From UHGV virus genome UHGV-2051569: DNA of 32,262 bases, one strand, 5' to 3'. The DNA is from a virus. Shown here one piece after another: positions 7,556 to 32,262 of this stretch. The notes under the pieces were generated by a model, which worked only from the letters and a program-made list of their open reading frames with translations, did not search any database and had not been told where the DNA came from. Made by a program: the position numbers and the translations under genes. How positions within the stretch are numbered: position 1 is the stretch's first letter; each line of letters starts with the position of its first letter.

Positions 7556-8077
7556 ATGATGCCAGTTGCCCGTTATCTCTGCATTTTCATAAACGTTGGT
7601 TTGGGAGAAGGCTCTGCATTACCTGTTGGTGTGCCTGTTCCATGGCCTTCAGCCACACCGCCAACAGGCTGGCTGAAATGCAACGGTGCGGCTTTTTCTG
7701 CTGAAGAATACCCGGAACTGGCAAAGGCTTATCCGACAAATAAATTACCTGATTTACGCGGTGAGTTTATTCGTGGCTGGGATGACGGGCGCGGTATTGA
7801 TGCAGGACGTGTTTTATTGAGTATTCAGGCAGGAATGCTGGAAAAACACCGTCATATTGTTGTTGCCAATGATGGTTACGACACGAAAGATGAATGGGAA
7901 CTGGCTACGATTTTCAAAAAAACATACACACAAGGGCGAGGACTTGATGCCACAAATACAGGAGGGAGCCTAATCCCATCACCGACACTTCATTCACGAG
8001 GGAGTATCGGTAATACTGGCGGGAGTGAAACCCGTCCACGAAATATTGCATTTAACTTTATCGTGAGGGCTGCATAA
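7556..8077 (+). CDS. Alternative promoterless tail-fibre C-terminal domain, fused to H only after inversion
   Basis: The ORF crosses the left crossover site at codons ~10-18 (INVGLGEGS, compared with [10 protein letters not shown]); inversion would join the H constant region to GSALPVGVPVPWP... Confidence 0.65.
   Translation: MMPVARYLCIFINVGLGEGSALPVGVPVPWPSATPPTGWLKCNGAAFSAEEYPELAKAYPTNKLPDLRGEFIRGWDDGRGIDAGRVLLSIQAGMLEKHRHIVVANDGYDTKDEWELATIFKKTYTQGRGLDATNTGGSLIPSPTLHSRGSIGNTGGSETRPRNIAFNFIVRAA
7584..7609. repeat. Left crossover site (hix/gix-like)
   Basis: ttttcataaacgttggtttgggagaa; its reverse complement ttctcccaaaccaacgtttatgaaaa matches the right site and resembles hix (AAACCAAGGTTTTT core) as recalled. 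Confidence 0.7.
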
Positions 8078-8679
8078 TGGATAACGCCGTATTAAATAGC
8101 GAGCTTATTGCCACGAAGGCGGGGAATATTACCGTCTATAACTATGATGGTGAAACTCGGGAATATATTTCCACTTCAAATGAATATCTTGCCATTGGTG
8201 TCGGTATCCCGGCATATTCCTGTTTAGATGCTCCTGGTACACATAAGGCTGGTTATGCTATCTGCCGTTCGATGGATTTAAACTCATGGGAATATGTGCC
8301 AGACCATCGCGGTGAAATCGTCTATAACACCGAAACGGGAGATGCCAAAGAAATCACAGCACCGGGTGATTACCCCGAAAATACAACCACTATCGCCCCA
8401 TTAACGCCATACGATAAATGGGATGGTGAGAAATGGGTGACCGATACTGAGGCACAGCATAGCGCCGCAGTAGACGCGGCAGAAGCACAGCGTCAGTCAC
8501 TGATTGATACTGCAATGGCCTCCATCAGTCTGATTCAGCTGAAATTGCAGGCCGGGCGGAAGCTGACGCAGGCAGAAACCACCCGACTTAACGCTGTGCT
8601 GGATTACATTGACGCGGTGACGGCAACAGATACCAGCACCGCGCCGGATGTCATCTGGCCTGAACTGCCGGAGGCGTAG
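8077..8679 (+). CDS. Alternative tail-fibre assembly chaperone (inverted-orientation partner)
   Basis: 200-aa ORF whose C-terminus (...LDYIDAVTATDTSTAPDVIWPELPEA) parallels the minus-strand chaperone C-terminus (...LDYLDALELVDTSGAPDIEWPTPPA); the two genes converge and overlap at their 3' ends. Confidence 0.75.
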   Translation: MDNAVLNSELIATKAGNITVYNYDGETREYISTSNEYLAIGVGIPAYSCLDAPGTHKAGYAICRSMDLNSWEYVPDHRGEIVYNTETGDAKEITAPGDYPENTTTIAPLTPYDKWDGEKWVTDTEAQHSAAVDAAEAQRQSLIDTAMASISLIQLKLQAGRKLTQAETTRLNAVLDYIDAVTATDTSTAPDVIWPELPEA

Positions 8680-9091
8680 GCCATTCAATATCTGGCGCAC
8701 CGGAAGTATCGACCAGTTCCAGTGCGTCCAGGTAATCCAGCCACAAATTATATTGCGCCAGTTCGTCACCTTTCAGACGACCAATAGCCGCTTTACCAGG
8801 CCATTGTTTACTGTTCATATAATCGTTGGCCTGATTAATCAATTGCTGCTTCTCCAATTCGGCTGCAGCAATTTGTTCCTCATGTGTTGGTGGTGGAATT
8901 TCGGACCATGCAGGAAAACCATTTTCTCCAGCGATACGGATTTTTCCTTTCGGCGGTAATCCGGAAAACTCAATATACACTTGCTCATCAACTTCAACAG
9001 CATCATCTGGCCATGAGTCAGCTTGAGTGTAATCCTCTTTCATCTCCAGCGGATAGAAAGAGTTTGTAGTCGCGGAATATATGTAATTCAT
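8651..9091 (-). CDS. Tail-fibre assembly chaperone (gpG/U-like), currently expressed orientation
   Basis: 146-aa ORF directly downstream of H on the same strand, with the conserved C-terminal chaperone motif. Confidence 0.8.
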   Translation of the reverse strand: MNYIYSATTNSFYPLEMKEDYTQADSWPDDAVEVDEQVYIEFSGLPPKGKIRIAGENGFPAWSEIPPPTHEEQIAAAELEKQQLINQANDYMNSKQWPGKAAIGRLKGDELAQYNLWLDYLDALELVDTSGAPDIEWPTPPAVQAR

Positions 9092-9112
9092 TTTTCACTC
9101 CATATAGCTAAA

Positions 9113-10072
9113 TTAACAGCCTAACGCTAAAAATGAAGCGCCGAGGCCAGGAGTACTGGCTCTGGATATAAATTTAACCGGGTCGGGACTAAAACCTGCA
9201 CAGGCAATATAACCAACAGCCCCGCTATCTGGTGTGTAGTCTTGTGAGACCAAAACACGCAGACATCTGTTTGGAAATGCAATCGGGAAATGGGTTACTA
9301 CATCCTGTGCAATGCCTGGTGCGCCGATTGAGCCCCACTGAAGAATAAAACCTGATGGTAATTTTTGATATCCAGTACCTGAAACAGAAAGCGTGAAGCT
9401 ACCCATATCAGGTATCTGATTCGCCCCTGTCCCTACATTCCTTTTAGCCGCTTCTCCCAAACCAAGGTTTTTAAGAACGTCGCCGGCCAGTCCCGCGTCA
9501 ACCATTTCTTTCAGAGCATTAGCGATTAACGGGTACTGCTTGTGTGGATTGGCGGCCTCAACATGTTTTTTCATCAGGTCATCAGCATATCCTTTCACCT
9601 CGATAATCTTGTCGTCGACATACTGGCGCGTTGCCAGCACGACTGCCGGGTCGATTTTCAGGGTGATTGCCGATGTGCTCGACACAATCAGAATCATGCG
9701 AATGGTCTGCGTGCGACCGCTTCCCTCCTGCAGTTGTGGCTTGTAGGTCTCCGGACAGTTCGCCACGGCAATCAGAATACCATCATCGTCATAGAGACCA
9801 ATCTCGCGGATCCAGAAACCACCTTCATTCTCGGGAATAATCTGTTCCGCGATAATCTGACTGGTATTGGCCGGGTCAACGGTCAGCAGGTTCAGCGGCG
9901 CGATGCGTTTCTGGTTAATGAGCTTCGTCTGCGCCGGGTCAGGGGTCGGCAACGTACCATTCGCATCACCGACGGCCATCTGCGTCAGGTTGAGTTTGGT
10001 ACCGAGTGCCGCCGCGTTCGCCAGCCGCGCCGCGCCCTGATTGGTCAGAATGGCAAAATATTTTGCGGTCAT
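9113..10072 (-). CDS. H: Tail fibre protein (P2 gpH-like), constant N-terminus plus currently in-frame variable C-terminus
   Basis: N-terminal motifs shared with P2 H as recalled (MAVGD, IAVAN...YKP...EGSGR...IVSS...YVDDKI); the C-terminal ~110 aa lie inside the invertible segment. Confidence 0.85.
9452..9477. repeat. Right crossover site (hix/gix-like) inside the H coding sequence
   Basis: ttctcccaaaccaaggtttttaagaa; encodes ...LKNLGLGE at the junction between the constant and variable parts of H. Confidence 0.7.
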
Positions 10073-21340: not shown

Positions 21341-22387
21341 ATGGGTAAACAAAAATCCCGTAAAGCCAACGCACAAAAGGCCAGCAAACCACAACAACTG
21401 ACCGCCAGCACACCGCCAAAAACGACAGCGTTCACCTTCGGCGAGCCGGTGCCGGTACTCGATAAGCGCGACATTCTGGATTACGTCGAGTGCATCAGTA
21501 ACGGCAAATGGTACGAGCCGCCGGTCAGCTTCTCAGGGCTGGCAAAGAGCCTGCGCTCTGCCGTGCATCACAGCTCGCCAATTTATGTTAAGCGTAACGT
21601 GCTCGCGAGCACCTACATTCCGCACCCGTTGTTATCCCGTCAGGATTTCAGCCGCTTTGCGCTCGATTATCTGGTGTTCGGTAACGCCTTTCTTGAGCAG
21701 CGCCACAGCGTCACCGGCCAGTTAATCAAACTGCTGGCCTCGCCAGCCAAATACACCCGACGCGGAGTCGACGATTCGATTTTCTGGTTTGTGGAAAACT
21801 TCACCCAGCCGCACGAGTTCGCGCCTGATACCGTGTTTCACCTGCTGGAGCCCGACATTAATCAGGAGATTTACGGCCTGCCCGAATATCTCAGCGCGCT
21901 AAATTCCGCCTGGCTGAATGAATCCGCGACGCTGTTCCGCCGCAAGTATTATCAGAACGGCGCGCACGCGGGTTACATCATGTATGTGACTGACCCGGCG
22001 CAGAGCGCGACCGACGTCGAATCGCTGCGCGAGGCGATGCGCAACTCAAAAGGGCTCGGCAACTTTAAGAACCTGTTTTTCTACGCTCCCGGCGGAAAAC
22101 CGGACGGCATCAAAATCGTGCCACTGAGCGAGGTCGCCACAAAGGATGACTTTTTCAACATCAAGAAGGCCAGTGCCGCCGATCTGATGGACGCGCACCG
22201 CGTACCGTTCCAGCTCATGGGCGGCAAGCCCGAGAATATCGGTTCACTCGGTGATGTTGAGAAGGTGGCAAAGGTATTTGTGCGCAACGAGCTGTCGCCG
22301 CTACAGGACAGGTTCAGGGAGGTAAATGACTGGCTCGGCATGGAGGTCATCAGATTCAAAGAGTACACCCTCGACAACCCAGAATAA
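21341..22387 (+). CDS. Q: Portal protein Q
   Basis: 348-aa ORF translationally coupled to P and transcribed towards cos, as in P2. Confidence 0.95.
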   Translation: MGKQKSRKANAQKASKPQQLTASTPPKTTAFTFGEPVPVLDKRDILDYVECISNGKWYEPPVSFSGLAKSLRSAVHHSSPIYVKRNVLASTYIPHPLLSRQDFSRFALDYLVFGNAFLEQRHSVTGQLIKLLASPAKYTRRGVDDSIFWFVENFTQPHEFAPDTVFHLLEPDINQEIYGLPEYLSALNSAWLNESATLFRRKYYQNGAHAGYIMYVTDPAQSATDVESLREAMRNSKGLGNFKNLFFYAPGGKPDGIKIVPLSEVATKDDFFNIKKASAADLMDAHRVPFQLMGGKPENIGSLGDVEKVAKVFVRNELSPLQDRFREVNDWLGMEVIRFKEYTLDNPE

Positions 22388-22417
22388 CTTAGGCCGCCAC
22401 AATCTCTGCGCTCATTA

Positions 22418-22446
22418 TTGAAGATGCAATCTGCGAAAGCTATAGT
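22418..22446 (+). promoter_or_regulatory. Candidate sigma70 promoter for the post-portal cargo gene
   Basis: TTGAAG, 17-bp spacer, TATAGT, ending about 18 bp before the ATG at 22465. Confidence 0.4.
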
Positions 22447-22464
22447 GCATCGAATATCAAAACA

Positions 22465-23469
22465 ATGGGCGCGGAGATTAATATTTTGGAAACTGATTTT
22501 AAAATAACCCTCGAAGGTTTCGCTACTGAGCAAGAAGCAAATAATATCGGTAATTTCACACTAGAAGCTATCCGAGCTTTAACAAAAAATCTCAATCTTG
22601 ATATCTCCAAATTAAAATGCGTGATTGTTTCCTATAACTTCAGTGAAGCTCTTCAAAAGGTAACATCCTCTTACCAACACAAATCCCCTAGTTCATTTAC
22701 CAATAGCAAACAGGGCGCAGCCGTCGGGCAGTTAGTAACAAAAATTGGCAATGATGGGCTATGTGAAGAATATACCCTTGTGCTATCGATTGATTTTTTT
22801 GTTGAGCTTTTCAATGATGGTAGCTTCTTAAAACTGAAAGAAGAAGGATACCTCGCAGTCATCCATCGCATTCACCATGAATTAGTGCACGTACATGAAA
22901 AAAACTTACTAACATGCTTAGCCCAAAACTTTACAGTCAACGAGTATGGTAGCGCGCTTCTTATCTCAGCCACGCGTGCGTGGTCTGAATATCTCGCTAA
23001 TTACATGTCTTCGGGGTCTGCCCCTCAAGAAACTATCGATTTATTTTTAGAGAATCTTGACACTGTTGTAAATGAAGTATCTGACGAGATTGAAAAACTC
23101 ATCTGGGGTTATAAGTACGGTAATATTTCTCTGAATGACATGTATCTCGAAGTAAAAAAACGTATCAGGCTAATCATCAACTCTTATGCTTATGCGATGG
23201 GTTATGTCCATTCTCTAAACATCAATATTAAAGAATACGATCCAAAGCTATCCCTTACACTATCCAACTCAAAGATAAGATATCAATTATCAGAATTAGG
23301 CATTGCTTTTCAGAATCTTTATGGGAAGTTTAATGACCAGCACATTACAGGTTTTGGTGATTTTCGGGAGATAACAATAATCATTGATGAAATATTCAAG
23401 CAGTTTGGGCTTGTTTTAGAGTGTCCCGATTGGTCTGGCGACGGTGAACTCTACATACATGTAAATTAG
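22465..23469 (+). CDS. Cargo gene between portal and cos: hypothetical protein with an HExxH motif (possible metallopeptidase-like)
   Basis: 334-aa AT-rich ORF containing ...AVIHRIHHELVHVHEKN...; no obvious RBS; located between the Q stop and the cos-like site. Confidence 0.55.
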   Translation: MGAEINILETDFKITLEGFATEQEANNIGNFTLEAIRALTKNLNLDISKLKCVIVSYNFSEALQKVTSSYQHKSPSSFTNSKQGAAVGQLVTKIGNDGLCEEYTLVLSIDFFVELFNDGSFLKLKEEGYLAVIHRIHHELVHVHEKNLLTCLAQNFTVNEYGSALLISATRAWSEYLANYMSSGSAPQETIDLFLENLDTVVNEVSDEIEKLIWGYKYGNISLNDMYLEVKKRIRLIINSYAYAMGYVHSLNINIKEYDPKLSLTLSNSKIRYQLSELGIAFQNLYGKFNDQHITGFGDFREITIIIDEIFKQFGLVLECPDWSGDGELYIHVN

Positions 23470-23852: not shown

Positions 23853-24569
23853 TTATCGAACCCTTTTTTCCAGATTGAGTAGGGCTTTTTTGCATTTTTT
23901 TTGATTAATAAACGTTCTATCCAGTATCTTTATATGAAACATCATTACTCTATTGAAGCAAATAAACATTTCTCGGGCATCCTGGCCAACAATCAGAAAC
24001 GACTCGCCATTAATATTTGGAATGTTGCTATTCTTCGATAAATCATCAAATGCCTCAGAGCCACGTTCATTTCTATACATTTCTTTAATAGCCATTACTT
24101 CATCGTGGCGAACGATATTAATCCAAATTAATTTATCTACAGTCAACAATTGCCCATACTCTAAGAAAAATACTCCCTTGGCTAACCAGGTGCCGTATTG
24201 GTAAATCTCCCTACCATTTAGGGGTAATGTTATCTGCGCACCTTTTTTTGTATGCCTAACACTCTGGAATGCTTCACGAAATTTCGAGTCTTTTCTTTTA
24301 AGCGCATTATGGAATTTATTAACAGCATCAAAGCTGCCTGTTGAGTGCTCTCCTACCATGCGGCAAATGACACCTAACACCTCGTCAATTCGGCTTTTAT
24401 CGCCATTGCACTTTTTGCATACATAGAAATCACCTTCGCCGTTGGTTCTATGAATGGAGACTGAAACTTGCGGAATCATGTGTTCAACTGAGCGGCAGTG
24501 GGGGTGATTTTCAACCTTATTCATGAGAACACCGCAATAAACGCAGTGTGTGCTTGGTTTCATATACAT
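23853..24569 (-). CDS. Cargo gene: HNH (His-Me finger) nuclease-domain protein with an uncharacterised C-terminal domain
   Basis: N-terminal CVYCG ... VEHMIPQ ... N ... CKKCNGDKS fits the Cys4 plus catalytic His/Asn HNH pattern; AT-rich; start uncertain (24644, 24569 or 24563; a weak AAGGG RBS precedes the inner ATGs). Confidence 0.6.
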   Translation of the reverse strand: MYMKPSTHCVYCGVLMNKVENHPHCRSVEHMIPQVSVSIHRTNGEGDFYVCKKCNGDKSRIDEVLGVICRMVGEHSTGSFDAVNKFHNALKRKDSKFREAFQSVRHTKKGAQITLPLNGREIYQYGTWLAKGVFFLEYGQLLTVDKLIWINIVRHDEVMAIKEMYRNERGSEAFDDLSKNSNIPNINGESFLIVGQDAREMFICFNRVMMFHIKILDRTFINQKKCKKALLNLEKRVR

Positions 24570-24665
24570 TGCCCTTACAATGTCTAATGACGAATGAGTA
24601 GCACTAAAATAACACAAATCTGATGGTGGGATGTCAGCCCCCATGCTTTAGATTGGACATACGAA

Positions 24666-28967: not shown

Positions 28968-29477
28968 TCAAATCAGACCAAACGATGCGCCAATACCGCT
29001 CATGGTATCGACCACGCTCGACATAGCTGGATTAGTCTGCAGACGTGCATGCAGCGCCAGAGCCGACAATGACAACATGCGAATGCCGGAGTTAACGCTT
29101 TCAATCATGTTGTGCTTACGGGCAGTGGTCAGACGTTCATCAGATACCGCGCCGCTCGCCAGTTCGCCGAGTTCACGCATTGCGCGCATGACATAAGACT
29201 GCAATTTGTCTTTAGCCAACTCATTAACCGGCACGCATGGTAGGCAGTGAATCTGCGCTAAAAAACCATCAATGAGGGTTGAGTCTTCGGTCAGGTCAGT
29301 CAGCAGCCACAATTCAGGCGGCGTGAACTGGTGAGGCTGTTCCGGGTTGAGCTTGTTACGTAACGTTTGAACGTTCATACCTGCACGCTCGGCCAGCTTC
29401 GCCATGTTGTGACGCTGTGCGAAAATGCGGCATGCTTCGTCATAGTGGGGATGTTTGGAAACCTGAAAATCAAACAT
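28968..29477 (-). CDS. cII: CII-like transcriptional activator of lysogeny (phage 186 type)
   Basis: 169-aa product MFDFQVSKHPHYDEACRIFAQRHNMAKLAERAGMNVQTLRNKL... with an HTH, matching 186 CII as recalled; GAGGGA RBS before the internal ATG. Confidence 0.75.
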   Translation of the reverse strand: MFDFQVSKHPHYDEACRIFAQRHNMAKLAERAGMNVQTLRNKLNPEQPHQFTPPELWLLTDLTEDSTLIDGFLAQIHCLPCVPVNELAKDKLQSYVMRAMRELGELASGAVSDERLTTARKHNMIESVNSGIRMLSLSALALHARLQTNPAMSSVVDTMSGIGASFGLI

Positions 29478-29509
29478 GGTTAAATTCCCTCTAACTTGCA
29501 TAATCAAAT

Positions 29510-29881
29510 TCAGTTAAGAGCGGTGCGCTGGTCGATGTAGCGACAATCAATCGCTTGTTGAGTCAGCTTATCGCGCCATGCTTTTACATTTACGAGGGTT
29601 CGGCTTCGTTTAGCAGCTTCCTCTTTGTTGGAAAAGTCTTTGGTCGGAGCTTTGAGAAGGACTCCCTCATCGAGCCATTGCCAGACCAGACGCTCGCTAA
29701 CACCGCGAGTAGCGGCGAAGTCTTTCACAGTCATCGTGTCTGACATAGCGGAGCGAATCATTGTCTGTAGAGCTGGCAGCATGGCGGTAACGATGGCATC
29801 AAACTGTGTTGGATCTAGCAGCACAGTTTGATTTTGTGAGTTTTGCGAGTCGTGCGTCGAGATTGATTTTGCATCTGACAT
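29510..29881 (-). CDS. apl: Apl-like excisionase/repressor (HTH) with an N-terminal extension of uncertain reality
   Basis: C-terminal ~80 aa (MSDTMTVKDFAATRGVSERLVWQWLDEGVL...) is a typical Apl/Cox-type HTH; the track ORF adds ~45 aa upstream and its ATG has an AGGAG RBS. Confidence 0.65.
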   Translation of the reverse strand: MSDAKSISTHDSQNSQNQTVLLDPTQFDAIVTAMLPALQTMIRSAMSDTMTVKDFAATRGVSERLVWQWLDEGVLLKAPTKDFSNKEEAAKRSRTLVNVKAWRDKLTQQAIDCRYIDQRTALN

Positions 29882-29994
29882 ATCGCATTATCTCCTGTTG
29901 TTTGAAATGTAGTGCAGTGGTGTGCATCTTGGTCGGTGAGCACCAATATAGATCGCTAAATTTTGGTTGTAAACAAAATTATTGTTGGTGTCAT

Positions 29995-30840
29995 ATGTCT
30001 AAAAATGATGTTAATGCGTCTGCCGCATTGGAACGTGTCCTTTCTGCATACGGCTTTAAGCAGCAAAAGGAACTAGCCGAAAGGCTTGGCATACATGCAA
30101 ACAACGTGAGTAGCTGGCTTGCTAGAAACGTAATCCCTAGCAACGTTTTCGTTGAGTGTGCTCTTGATACTGGAGCTGACCTGCGATGGCTAATTAATGG
30201 TGAGCTTGCAAATGCAAGATTTGAAGTGGTGAAAACTAAGCTTAAAGGTAAGCAACTCTATGATGAAATCATGGCAAATGGAGGGAGGGCGGTTCTGCGT
30301 CGGATTCTCGATGCGTATGGTTTTACTCTGCAAAAAGAGCTTGGAGATTTATTAGGTATATCTTCCGGCACTATAAGCACTTGGGTTAGACGCGATTTTT
30401 TCCCCGGTGACGTGGTTGTCACTTGCGCCCTTGATACTGGCGTATCGTTAGAATGGTTATCAACCGGAAAAGGCCAGATGCGTAACAGTAATGATGGTGA
30501 ACCGGCAAATGCTTTAACGATTAGAAAGTGCCGCCTCGAGGCTGGCGAACTCAAAGATATCGGACGCTGGACTCCTGATATATCTATGGTTCCATCAAAT
30601 ACTGATGATTTAGTGTTTATTGATGGTGTGAGCACATCTTGGCTTGTTGATAGTTCTAACTCGAAGATAGGAAATGGTCGCTGGCTTATTGGTATTGATG
30701 GCGCACTCGATGTTTTTGACGTAATCAGGTTGCCAGGCGGAAAGGTCAGGTTATCAAATAAGTCTGCTGAGTTTGAATGTAATATTTCAGATATCACACC
30801 ATCAGGTGCGGTTATTTTTACTTTGGAAAAGCATGTTTAA
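29995..30840 (+). CDS. cI: CI-like immunity repressor with a tandemly duplicated HTH domain
   Basis: Divergent from apl/cII and upstream of int; two paralogous ~60-aa segments (ERVLSAYGFKQQKELAERLGIHANNVSSWL...CALDTGADLRWL and RRILDAYGFTLQKELGDLLGISSGTISTWV...CALDTGVSLEWL); start at ATG 29995. Confidence 0.75.
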   Translation: MSKNDVNASAALERVLSAYGFKQQKELAERLGIHANNVSSWLARNVIPSNVFVECALDTGADLRWLINGELANARFEVVKTKLKGKQLYDEIMANGGRAVLRRILDAYGFTLQKELGDLLGISSGTISTWVRRDFFPGDVVVTCALDTGVSLEWLSTGKGQMRNSNDGEPANALTIRKCRLEAGELKDIGRWTPDISMVPSNTDDLVFIDGVSTSWLVDSSNSKIGNGRWLIGIDGALDVFDVIRLPGGKVRLSNKSAEFECNISDITPSGAVIFTLEKHV

Positions 30841-30849
30841 GGAGCAGTA

Positions 30850-31188
30850 ATGAAAAAGTTTATATTTGCGATAGTCTGCATTGCACTTTCTTCCTCAGCC
30901 ATAGCCGCTGAGAAGTTTAAAGAGATAGACGGCGCTGCATATGGTGACAAGTGGCCTCTAACCTTTGAAAAGGCAAAGGTATCATGTGTTAACCGTGCTT
31001 ATGCTTTTGTGTATGACATCAAAACTGATGATAGATATCCTCTGAATGGCATGGCGGTAGATGCTGTTAAATCAGGAAAGCTGGAGGGGTCTAACTTAGA
31101 TGACGTATGGAAGGATGACCCTGAGTATGACGGCGTTAAAATTTCAATTTCACCGGTGATTGATGCCGCTACAGCCCTTTGTAATTAA
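30850..31188 (+). CDS. Secreted (signal-peptide) small protein between cI and int; candidate lysogenic-conversion gene
   Basis: AAGGAG RBS 7 nt upstream; N-terminus MKKFIFAIVCIALSSSAIA|AEK is a Sec signal peptide; mature part ~90 aa. Confidence 0.6.
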   Translation: MKKFIFAIVCIALSSSAIAAEKFKEIDGAAYGDKWPLTFEKAKVSCVNRAYAFVYDIKTDDRYPLNGMAVDAVKSGKLEGSNLDDVWKDDPEYDGVKISISPVIDAATALCN

Positions 31189-31212: not shown

Positions 31213-32262
31213 ATGACTGTAAGTAAACAAAAAAGTGGAAAATGGTTGTGTGAACTCTATCCAAATGGTCGAGAAGGGCGGCGTATACGTCGGCAGTTCA
31301 ATACCAAAGGTGAGGCCGAGGCATTTGAAGCATTTACCAAAAGCGAGAGTGAAGATAAGCCGTGGCTCGGCAAGAAAGAAGACCGCCGACGCTTAAGCGA
31401 GATTATTCAGCTTTGGCACAATTTGCACGGTCAAGCGTTAGTCGCCAGTAAGTCGAGGTTTGCAAAGCTTCAAATCGTATGTAATGGACTTGGCGACCCG
31501 ATTGCATCTCGCCTTACCGCGAAAGACTGGGCTCATTATCGTGACCGTCGATTACGTGGTGAAATAGACAATGGTTATCATAAAGACCCCTCGAAATGGA
31601 TCGCCAAACCTATAACCGTCAATCGCGAACAACAATACCTAGAAGCAGTGTTTAATGAGCTCCGCCGGTTAGGGGAGTGGAGCCTACCCAATCCACTTGA
31701 TGGGATCCGAGTATTCAAAGAAGCTGAGAAAGAAATGTCCTGGCTAACTTTGTCTCAGCTCCCGGAGCTGTTTCGAGCCTGCGAGCAATACGGCAAAGAA
31801 GACCTCACCATGATTGTTAAGGTGTGCCTTGCAACCGGCGCTCGATGGGGGGAAGCAGAGAGATTGACCCGACCTCAACTTTCTCCATATAAACTAACGT
31901 TCACCAAAACCAAAGGTAAGAAGAATCGCACAGTTCCTATTCCTAAATGGCTGTACGACGAGTTGTCCGTACGTCAAGGCAGAATGTTTAAACCCTGCTA
32001 TCAGGAGTTTAAAAAGATGCTCAAACTAACGAATATTGAATTGACGGAAGGGCAGAAGACGCACGTTTTGCGTCATACTTTTGGTGCGCATTTTATGATG
32101 AACGGAGGGAATATACTGGTGCTGCAGAAAATTCTCGGACATGCCAATATTCGAGAAACAATGAAGTATGCGCACTTTGCTCCTGACCACCTTGAACAAG
32201 CTGTAACCCTCAATCCGTTATCGCTGTATGTTGGCGACAATGTGGCGGCAGAGGTTGCATAA
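31213..32262 (+). CDS. int: Tyrosine integrase (P2/186 family)
   Basis: 349-aa ORF with the C-terminal R...HxxR...Y catalytic region (HVLRHTFGAHFMMNGGNILVLQKILGHANIRETMKYAHF); its stop is at the window end. Confidence 0.9.
   Translation: MTVSKQKSGKWLCELYPNGREGRRIRRQFNTKGEAEAFEAFTKSESEDKPWLGKKEDRRRLSEIIQLWHNLHGQALVASKSRFAKLQIVCNGLGDPIASRLTAKDWAHYRDRRLRGEIDNGYHKDPSKWIAKPITVNREQQYLEAVFNELRRLGEWSLPNPLDGIRVFKEAEKEMSWLTLSQLPELFRACEQYGKEDLTMIVKVCLATGARWGEAERLTRPQLSPYKLTFTKTKGKKNRTVPIPKWLYDELSVRQGRMFKPCYQEFKKMLKLTNIELTEGQKTHVLRHTFGAHFMMNGGNILVLQKILGHANIRETMKYAHFAPDHLEQAVTLNPLSLYVGDNVAAEVA

Follow-up and report, generated by a model that had tools for sequence, protein, structure and literature searches.

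A predicted periplasmic YebY/DUF2511 protein encoded behind the cI repressor of a 186/PSP3-like prophage

Introduction

YebY of Escherichia coli, the product of the third gene of the yobA-yebZ-yebY (AZY) copper-uptake operon, has recently been linked with the uptake of copper, with multidrug resistance that depends on mar and with tolerance of streptomycin. It is a monomeric protein with negligible physiological metal binding, whose periplasmic location and disulfide have been shown experimentally (Hadley et al. 2021, PMC8689200). NDH-2 activity depends on it and on YobA (PMC8689200). YebZ-dependent copper uptake falls when YebY is co-expressed, a result that gave rise to a 'safety valve' model (PMC11923076), and loss of yebY leads to streptomycin tolerance (bioRxiv 10.64898/2026.08.18.745456). 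On our reading of the YebY literature, the CopD/YebZ-CopC/YobA copper importer is the only known partner system of YebY in Enterobacterales. Here we analyse an open reading frame (ORF) at positions 30850..31188 on the + strand of the virus genome UHGV-2051569, a stretch of 32,262 nucleotides (nt), hereafter the window, that is a 186/PSP3-like prophage. The ORF lies between the genes for the immunity repressor (cI) and the integrase (int), and its product is very probably a YebY family protein that is exported to the periplasm.

Members of this family have been noticed in several genomic settings. Roughly 52% of family representatives are encoded in copC-copD-yebY operons, and in some Enterobacteriaceae the YebY gene is flanked by the gene of a XerD-type recombinase on one side and that of a phage CI repressor helix-turn-helix (HTH) protein on the other (Hadley et al. 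2021, PMC8689200). The gene, its family and its cI-int position are therefore already on record (RefSeq, PSP3 gp28, PMC8689200). An analysis of P2/186 regulatory regions (Nilsson and Haggard-Ljungquist 2011, PMC3448106) does not mention the ORF, and the literature we searched assigns no function to the phage copy. What we add to this record is evidence that the gene is accessory and under selection, and that it holds a fixed place behind cI throughout the PSP3-type lineage and stands behind repressor-type genes in most of its nearest relatives.

Results

The ORF is a selected gene and very probably encodes a YebY family protein

Read directly from the sequence, the ORF extends from ATG to TAA and encodes 112 amino acids (aa). 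It starts 9 nt after cI and ends 24 nt before int, and all three genes are on the + strand. A preliminary description of this DNA, made from the sequence alone, had given the same coordinates and length and had noted a strong AAGGAG ribosome-binding site, which is present 5 nt before the ATG. The ORF and its parts are as follows.

30839..30844, + strand: Shine-Dalgarno sequence AAGGAG, read from the sequence; it overlaps the cI stop codon TAA (30838-30840) and is separated from the ATG by a 5-nt spacer.
30850..30906, + strand: signal-peptide codons 1-19 (MKKFIFAIVCIALSSSAIA), with a predicted signal peptidase I (SPase I) cut after Ala19; rule-based, fitting 22 of 22 homologues, with a predicted local distance difference test (pLDDT) score of about 52 at residues 1-20.
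30907..31188, + strand: mature YebY/DUF2511 domain, 93 aa plus stop; assigned from Pfam PF10709, alignment with 7N0J, an AlphaFold2 (AF2) model, conservation and the ratio of non-synonymous to synonymous changes (dN/dS).

The preliminary description recognised no motif in the mature protein, and on this point it has to be corrected: the protein belongs to DUF2511/YebY, a relative of it has a solved structure (7N0J), and it had earlier been annotated as PSP3 gp28. The product scores 67.8 bits (cut-off 21; E=1.1e-18) with the Pfam family DUF2511 (PF10709), which newer releases name YebY, and its residues 29-111 cover profile positions 5-87 of 87. Over its full length it also matches PHROG 2950 ('unknown function'; E=1.8e-55), whereas an NCBIfam scan gave no match. 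By sequence, the only solved relative is E. coli YebY (7N0J; E=3.8e-8, 34% identity). The Pfam and PHROG matches, together with the dN/dS values given below, establish that the ORF is a real, selected gene and not a chance reading frame. In existing annotations, the identical RefSeq protein and some homologues are listed as 'DUF2511 domain-containing protein', the 2002 record of PSP3 notes a similarity of gp28 to a hypothetical protein of E. coli, and the authors of Midge named a 'putative periplasmic protein' with a DUF2511 domain.

Structure prediction, which the preliminary description had proposed as a check, points to the YebY fold. An AF2 model built on an alignment of 22 sequences reached a pLDDT of 79 and a predicted template modelling (pTM) score of 0.69, the signal peptide and one loop being its sole low-confidence parts. 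When the model was compared with the PDB by Foldseek, the top matches were YebY chains (template modelling (TM) score 0.84, target-normalised; root-mean-square deviation 2.8 Å; probability 1.00), followed by the MlbQ entries 2MVO and 6QFP (E 2e-3, TMq 0.60; 19-21% identity), and nothing beyond YebY and these two entries was significant. The predicted fold, a helix-packed four-stranded antiparallel sheet, agrees with 7N0J.

The residues that typify the family are also kept. Cys46 and Cys111 align with the disulfide-forming Cys48 and Cys113 of YebY; these two cysteines are present in 22/22 and 21/22 clade members, respectively, and in 100% of 103 family representatives. Every position that is conserved family-wide, as judged against the 103 representatives, is retained (G32, W35, P36, T38, C46, Y63, N66, G67, A69, W87, P91, G95, K97, P102, L110 and C111). 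T59 and a V73-x-S75-G76-K77 loop are common to the window protein and enterobacterial YebY, but not to the wider family.

The second-ranked Foldseek matches raise the idea that the protein is an immunity factor like MlbQ, sequestering a peptide toxin in the periplasm (a microcin, a colicin domain, a host antimicrobial peptide or a lantibiotic-like compound) and so raising the resistance of the lysogen. MlbQ is the only other family member that has been studied; it serves in lantibiotic self-resistance and is a proposed binder of NAI-107 (PMC8689200). Direct binding of the ligand by MlbQ is itself only a proposal, the phage protein shares just 19-21% identity with it and has no lipoprotein anchor, and no bacteriocin or ABC-transporter genes are linked to the ORF. 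Lantibiotics also normally fail to reach the Gram-negative periplasm, which counts further against such a role. We regard MlbQ-like immunity as very improbable.

Export to the periplasm is predicted by rule and by homology

The N-terminus of the protein has the layout of a Sec signal peptide, with two Lys in the n-region, an uncharged core of 16 residues (maximum Kyte-Doolittle 10-mer of 3.3) and Ala at positions -3 and -1, so that the predicted cut falls between MKKFIFAIVCIALSSSAIA and AEK. We applied the (-3,-1) rule to an alignment of 22 homologues that span 50-100% identity. Although their signal peptides are highly variable in sequence, all 22 have a basic n-region, keep the (-3,-1) rule and begin the mature part with [ATV]E[KN]; the mature N-terminus is AEK in 19 of them and TEK, VEK or AEN in the remaining three. 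The preliminary description had called a Sec signal peptide and a mature protein of about 90 aa, and both are borne out at the level of prediction: the basic n-region, uncharged core and (-3,-1) rule fit throughout the alignment, and the rule-based cut after Ala19 leaves 93 aa.

We also considered whether the protein might be a lipoprotein. None of the 22 aligned homologues contains a lipobox ([LVI][ASTVI][GAS]C), and the Cys within the signal peptide of the window protein is not conserved among them, which rules out this reading. Taken with the homology to YebY, the signal-peptide rule predicts Sec export and cleavage after Ala19 to release the protein into the periplasm; we hold this localisation and the family identity jointly with high confidence.

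The gene is accessory and fixed directly behind cI in the PSP3-type lineage

The preliminary description had left room for the gene being a conserved core gene of all 186-like phages. In phage 186, cI (22433-23011) abuts int (21423-22433) with no gene in between, so the gene is not core to 186-like phages, and in Klebsiella phage 4LV2017 a different gene fills the cI-int slot. Among 50,697 deposited phage records, a homologue is found in 10, representing seven phages (PSP3, SEN1, SW9, SI22, RCIP0057, Midge and vB_EcoM-613R3). A tblastn search with two divergent prophage homologues returned the same 10 phage records and no more, and these are exactly the records with a CI more than 66% identical to that of the window.

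In IMG/VR, CI is followed by the gene in 80/80 related loci, at a distance of 12-15 nt in 76, 51-54 nt in three and with a 443-nt insert in one. The preliminary description had suggested looking for adjacency to integrases in other prophages. Int is visible in 79 of the IMG/VR loci; in 75 of these it starts 26-35 nt after the gene, and four loci (L034-L036, L040) carry an extra insert of ~612 nt before it. Contigs from E. coli, Pantoea and metagenomes show the same order, with genes of 50-63% identity. Across 5,426 complete E. coli genomes, 17 carry a near-identical copy and 24 carry any relative; the identical protein, RefSeq WP_000713422.1, occurs on >900 contigs in a large protein collection, and a scan of a genome collection with one genome per species gave 3 loci. 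An accessory gene, it nevertheless keeps a fixed place right after cI throughout the PSP3-type lineage.

In some relatives the slot before int holds a further gene. A 166-aa bPH_3/SHOCT gene lies between the DUF2511 gene and int at L015 3924-4424 and at L016/L017 5475-5975, and PADLOC found no match for this insert gene. Insertions of this kind in some relatives mark the cI-int interval as a small cargo slot.

The strict linkage to the PSP3-type cI, seen in the same 10 phage records and in all the IMG/VR loci, could also be explained by a role in the phage life cycle, such as establishing or maintaining lysogeny, controlling integration or excision, or timing lysis in PSP3-type phages. If the phage 186 model holds, transcription from the CII-dependent establishment promoter would suit such a role as well. 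However, it is hard to see how a periplasmic protein would take part in DNA transactions in the cytoplasm, the gene is missing from phage 186 and many other relatives, and some homologues lie behind unrelated repressors (a 194-aa CI in L100, HTH_3 in L104). A life-cycle role therefore seems very improbable to us.

The gene is under purifying selection and has a mosaic origin

For the mature part, dN/dS was calculated by the Nei-Gojobori method for the three pairs with unsaturated synonymous sites. The values, 0.13, 0.05 and 0.14, indicate purifying selection. The signal-peptide codons are close to those of the L003/L013 lineage (synonymous difference, pS, of 0.22-0.24), whereas the mature part is saturated against that lineage; relative to the L001/SW9 lineage the pattern is reversed, with the mature part close and the signal peptide not. 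The signal peptide and mature part thus come from different lineages, making the gene itself a recombinant. Additionally, the identity of the gene is uncoupled from that of CI, some IMG/VR loci having a CI 99% identical and a gene only 64% identical, which indicates shuffling inside a fixed slot.

These features bear on a defence function. The preliminary description had proposed lysogenic conversion or superinfection exclusion (Sie) from the position of the gene. In an exclusion or anti-phage role, the periplasmic protein would stop DNA from entering by binding either an entry factor in the host inner membrane or some part of an incoming phage (its tail tip, tape measure, pilot protein or ejected lysozyme), and would protect the lysogen much as T4 Spackle or prophage Sie proteins do. 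The gene belongs to the immunity module, where it follows the repressor immediately and on the same strand in all 80 loci, with a repressor-type gene upstream in most of the nearest clusters too; it is accessory and mosaic, both in its uncoupling from CI and in its two-lineage signal and mature parts; and the slot before int takes other cargo, namely the bPH_3/SHOCT gene and the ~612-nt inserts noted above. Genes that are co-transcribed with a repressor, such as lambda rexAB, or that occupy the repressor-integrase interval, as in mycobacteriophage cluster N, are often defence genes, which also speaks for exclusion. Nonetheless, the strong purifying selection (dN/dS 0.05-0.14) gives no sign of arms-race diversification, and the residues kept are those conserved across non-phage family members. 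Nor does the protein resemble a known defence or Sie protein (PADLOC gave 0 matches, PHROG 2950 is of 'unknown function' and BFVD gave none at E<=0.001), and most Sie factors described so far are lipoproteins or sit in a membrane, whereas the phage protein has neither a transmembrane segment nor a lipobox. On balance, we consider exclusion unlikely.

Expression in lysogens is probable by analogy with phage 186

The neighbouring features that bear on expression of the ORF are listed here.

29995..30840, + strand: cI immunity repressor, 281 aa; Pfam Phage_CI_repr twice (E=1.5e-47) and Phage_CI_C (E=4.6e-19).
31213..32262, + strand: tyrosine integrase (int), 349 aa, the last gene of the operon inside the window; Pfam Int_N and Phage_integrase, PHROG 1 integrase.
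29510..29881, - strand: apl/cox-like gene, with its ATG at 29881.
28968..29507, - strand: cII, from library scans (Pfam, PHROG).
29863..29891, + strand: putative pL-type promoter, TTGATT-17 nt-CATTAT, 8/12 to consensus; read from the sequence and below the threshold of the consensus scan.
29945..29973, - strand: candidate pR-type lytic promoter facing pL, TTTACA-17 nt-TATATT, 10/12; from the promoter scan, its position near the cI start matching that of 186 pR.

The CI of the window is 73% identical to PSP3 CI. The GC content of the ORF (42.2%) is close to that of cI (43.6%), against 51.9% for the whole window, so the ORF is not distinct from its own module; a foreign-GC island was considered and dropped, as the low GC is common to the neighbouring cI.

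A terminator scan found no terminator-like site at the cI-ORF or ORF-int junction, with one match inside cI that is at chance level. A consensus scan found no promoter-like site directly upstream of the ORF, and the few matches elsewhere are likewise at chance level. The placement of the ORF within a cI-int unit, as first described, is upheld by the shared strand, the short gaps and these uninterrupted junctions. A classical moron with its own promoter and terminator is unsupported, neither being seen at the ORF.

The record for phage 186 gives a lysogenic operon, cI-int-orf69, that is transcribed from pL in lysogens and from the CII-dependent pE at establishment. The candidate pL of the window has its -35 inside the first apl-like codons and its -10 located 4 nt outside the apl ATG (29881, - strand), which is the same geometry relative to the apl start as that of the annotated pL of phage 186. 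As neither junction has a terminator-like site, the ORF would share the pL (maintenance) and pE (establishment) transcripts with the repressor. By analogy with 186, it would be made whenever CI is made, and the synteny with the 186 operon makes its expression in lysogens probable. A 'DUF2511 domain-containing protein' reported in a proteomics paper (PMC9927464) was considered as an instance of prophage-gene expression and then dropped; because of the order of accession numbers relative to lpp, it is most likely the host YebY of strain CCUG 73778.

The nearest family clusters lie in P2/186-like elements

A HMMER search over 1.84 billion representatives gave 867 clusters at E<=0.001, with the clade of the window protein forming one single 50% cluster. 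Moving outward from this clade, we examined the genomic surroundings of the next seven clusters open to look-up, each of which lies inside a P2/186-like element; a repressor-type gene (CI or HTH_3) is directly upstream in five, and int follows in only three. The Edwardsiella and Gibbsiella clusters have the order long CI, gene, int, and in the Yersinia cluster (L100) the gene stands behind a short, 194-aa CI and before int. In the Winslowiella cluster it stands behind a long CI, in a degraded prophage adjoining the host copC-copD-yebY operon. The other three are metagenomic P2-like elements that have, respectively, an HTH_3 repressor upstream (L104), a 118-aa gene without a Pfam match and a contig end 192 nt upstream. 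A control cluster from Sodalis, annotated 'YebY family' (P0191), has a copC-copD-yebY context, as does the Winslowiella host YebY. This repressor-adjacent pattern is not described in the papers searched, and it offers a simple handle on the role of the DUF2511 family.

In a neighbour-joining (NJ) tree of 80 columns, drawn without bootstrap support, the copC-copD-linked (AZY) YebY proteins form a separate group of six members, with the window clade outside it. In this weak and poorly resolved tree, drawn to see whether the phage-borne copies are monophyletic, those from Yersinia, Edwardsiella and Gibbsiella prophages lie closer to the AZY group than the window clade does.

Some placements elsewhere in the family deserve mention. 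In Winslowiella toletana (L016/L017 1-5339), a degraded 186-like prophage with a long CI, the DUF2511 gene and a truncated integrase lies ~3.5 kb from the host copC-copD-yebY genes; that the host yebY and a prophage yebY-like gene are nearly side by side may be a coincidence or a trace of gene capture. A search of a plasmid collection found only chromosomal-type YebY and actinobacterial DUF2511 genes and no link of DUF2511 genes to mobile copper resistance. The plasmid copies include those on virulence plasmids of Mycobacterium ulcerans, M. liflandii and M. pseudoshottsii and on one Arthrobacter plasmid (H118-H123). Mycobacterial DUF2511 copies lie downstream of XRE-type HTH regulators (Hadley et al., PMC8689200), a placement that echoes the repressor-adjacent one in prophages.

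Other features of the prophage

Several further observations concern the prophage as a whole. The CI of the window carries two tandem N-terminal Phage_CI_repr HTH domains before its C-terminal domain (281 aa), whereas phage 186 CI (192 aa) has one. The long form recurs in PSP3 (286 aa) and in Pantoea, Edwardsiella, Gibbsiella and Winslowiella prophages. PSP3 CI has been described as having a 'longer C-terminal domain' (Nilsson 2011, PMC3448106), which does not fit the Pfam result.

At the left end, a full-length CyaR/RyeE small RNA gene lies at 83-168 (Rfam, 100.7 bits). Bases 1-179 of the window are core E. coli chromosome, present in 5,424/5,426 genomes, and bases 1-299 match the K-12-type cyaR-ogrK junction; the window therefore begins in host DNA at the classical P2 integration site. 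The integrase, however, shares 99.4-100% identity with those found next to yfiB elsewhere (L006, EC6868). A cyaR-ogrK start combined with a yfiB-type integrase suggests that prophages residing at two loci have recombined, or that a rearrangement took place; the window does not reach the right junction of the prophage.

The interval from the portal gene to the replication region holds two cargo ORFs, at 22465-23469 (+) and 23853-24644 (-). No Pfam family matches either of them, and the second has weak PADLOC matches to PtuB, the Septu HNH nuclease (E=7e-5). Related prophages carry other genes in the same spot (an nSTAND1/AAA_16 NTPase, DUF2188), which looks like the variable hotspot of P2-like phages. 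Finally, an ORF with a tail-collar domain and a tail-fibre assembly ORF (Caudo_TAP) at 7556-8679 (+) face oppositely oriented ORFs at 8651-10072 (-), and this arrangement may be an alternative or invertible tail-fibre cassette.

Discussion

The explanation we favour, with moderate confidence, is that the ORF encodes a YebY-type protein that is expressed in lysogens and acts as a YebY-like modulator. Because the family-wide conserved residues and the V-x-S-G-K loop are kept, the protein most likely acts as YebY does. A precursor of 112 aa, translated from its own strong ribosome-binding site on pL and pE transcripts, would be produced continuously in lysogens, exported by Sec and cut after Ala19 to give a soluble periplasmic alpha/beta protein of ~10 kDa, held together by a Cys46-Cys111 disulfide. 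Like YebY, it would then serve as a small periplasmic binding or modulator protein, for which the likeliest partner in these hosts would be the YebZ/YobA (CopD/CopC) copper importer that YebY damps. The prophage copy would supply lysogens with a constitutive, FnrS-independent dose of a YebY-like modulator, and altered copper entry could in turn change mar induction, NDH-2 activity and aminoglycoside tolerance. For the phage protein, this copper/YebZ mechanism is a tentative proposal and is rather less likely true than false. The probability that is left across the functions considered here goes to something else.

Several points weigh against the favoured explanation. YebY binds copper weakly and only when reduced (PMC8689200), so any 'copper' role of a family member would be indirect. 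The phage protein shares only 34% identity with the YebY of the AZY operon and falls outside the AZY clade of the weak NJ tree, and about half of the family lies outside copper contexts, where distinct roles have been suggested (PMC8689200). All the hosts already have their own yebY, making the gain from a second copy less than obvious, and there is no known YebY-YebZ interface with which the phage protein could be compared. With regard to expression, the candidate pL matches 8/12 of the consensus and is placed by analogy, and production in lysogens likewise leans on the geometry of the 186 operon.

A broader and more speculative reading is that P2/186-like prophages of Escherichia, Salmonella, Klebsiella, Enterobacter, Pantoea, Winslowiella, Yersinia, Edwardsiella and Gibbsiella keep a diverged YebY behind their repressor, with which they take over or jam YebZ/YobA copper import, or else that they have re-used the fold as a new class of soluble periplasmic exclusion factor. 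In the first case, copper-dependent mar induction, NDH-2 activity and aminoglycoside tolerance would be reset in lysogens, and the gene would be a prophage-encoded modulator of metal homeostasis and antibiotic susceptibility. We think this reading unlikely in the form stated. Given the links of YebY to antibiotics and copper, constitutive production of a paralogue from the prophage could alter how lysogens respond to antibiotics or to copper.

It is useful to set the locus beside the systems it most resembles. Lambda rexA and rexB behind cI, and the mycobacteriophage genes between repressor and integrase, have a like placement and are co-transcribed with the repressor in the lysogen, and T4 Spackle is a small, Sec-exported, soluble periplasmic exclusion protein. 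No sequence or structural relationship of the phage protein to rexAB or Spackle was found with PADLOC and BFVD. MlbQ of Microbispora, a self-resistance protein for the lantibiotic NAI-107, shares the fold and the disulfide position (PMC8689200), but it is a lipoprotein with a long disordered linker, encoded in a lantibiotic cluster with ABC transporters, and is only ~20% identical to the phage protein; the latter has no lipobox, and its neighbours are cI, int, apl and cII, with no lantibiotic or ABC-transporter genes. E. coli YebY (7N0J) is closer: it falls in the same Pfam family, is equally long and carries a Sec signal peptide, and it has in common with the phage protein both disulfide cysteines, the conserved Trp, the motifs YPLN and SGK, and the predicted fold. 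The differences, beyond the modest sequence identity, lie in genomic setting and control: the window gene is in a prophage lysogeny operon and not beside copC/copD, and it is presumably under the phage switch, whereas host yebY is under copper boxes and FnrS. Closest of all are gp28 of Salmonella phage PSP3 (AAN08391.1) and the corresponding genes of SW9, SI22, SEN1, Klebsiella phage RCIP0057 and the E. coli phages Midge and vB_EcoM-613R3, which occupy the same slot between cI and int, encode 112 aa and are 63-84% identical; there is no difference of substance between these PSP3-type genes and the window gene, but the window copy is a mosaic.

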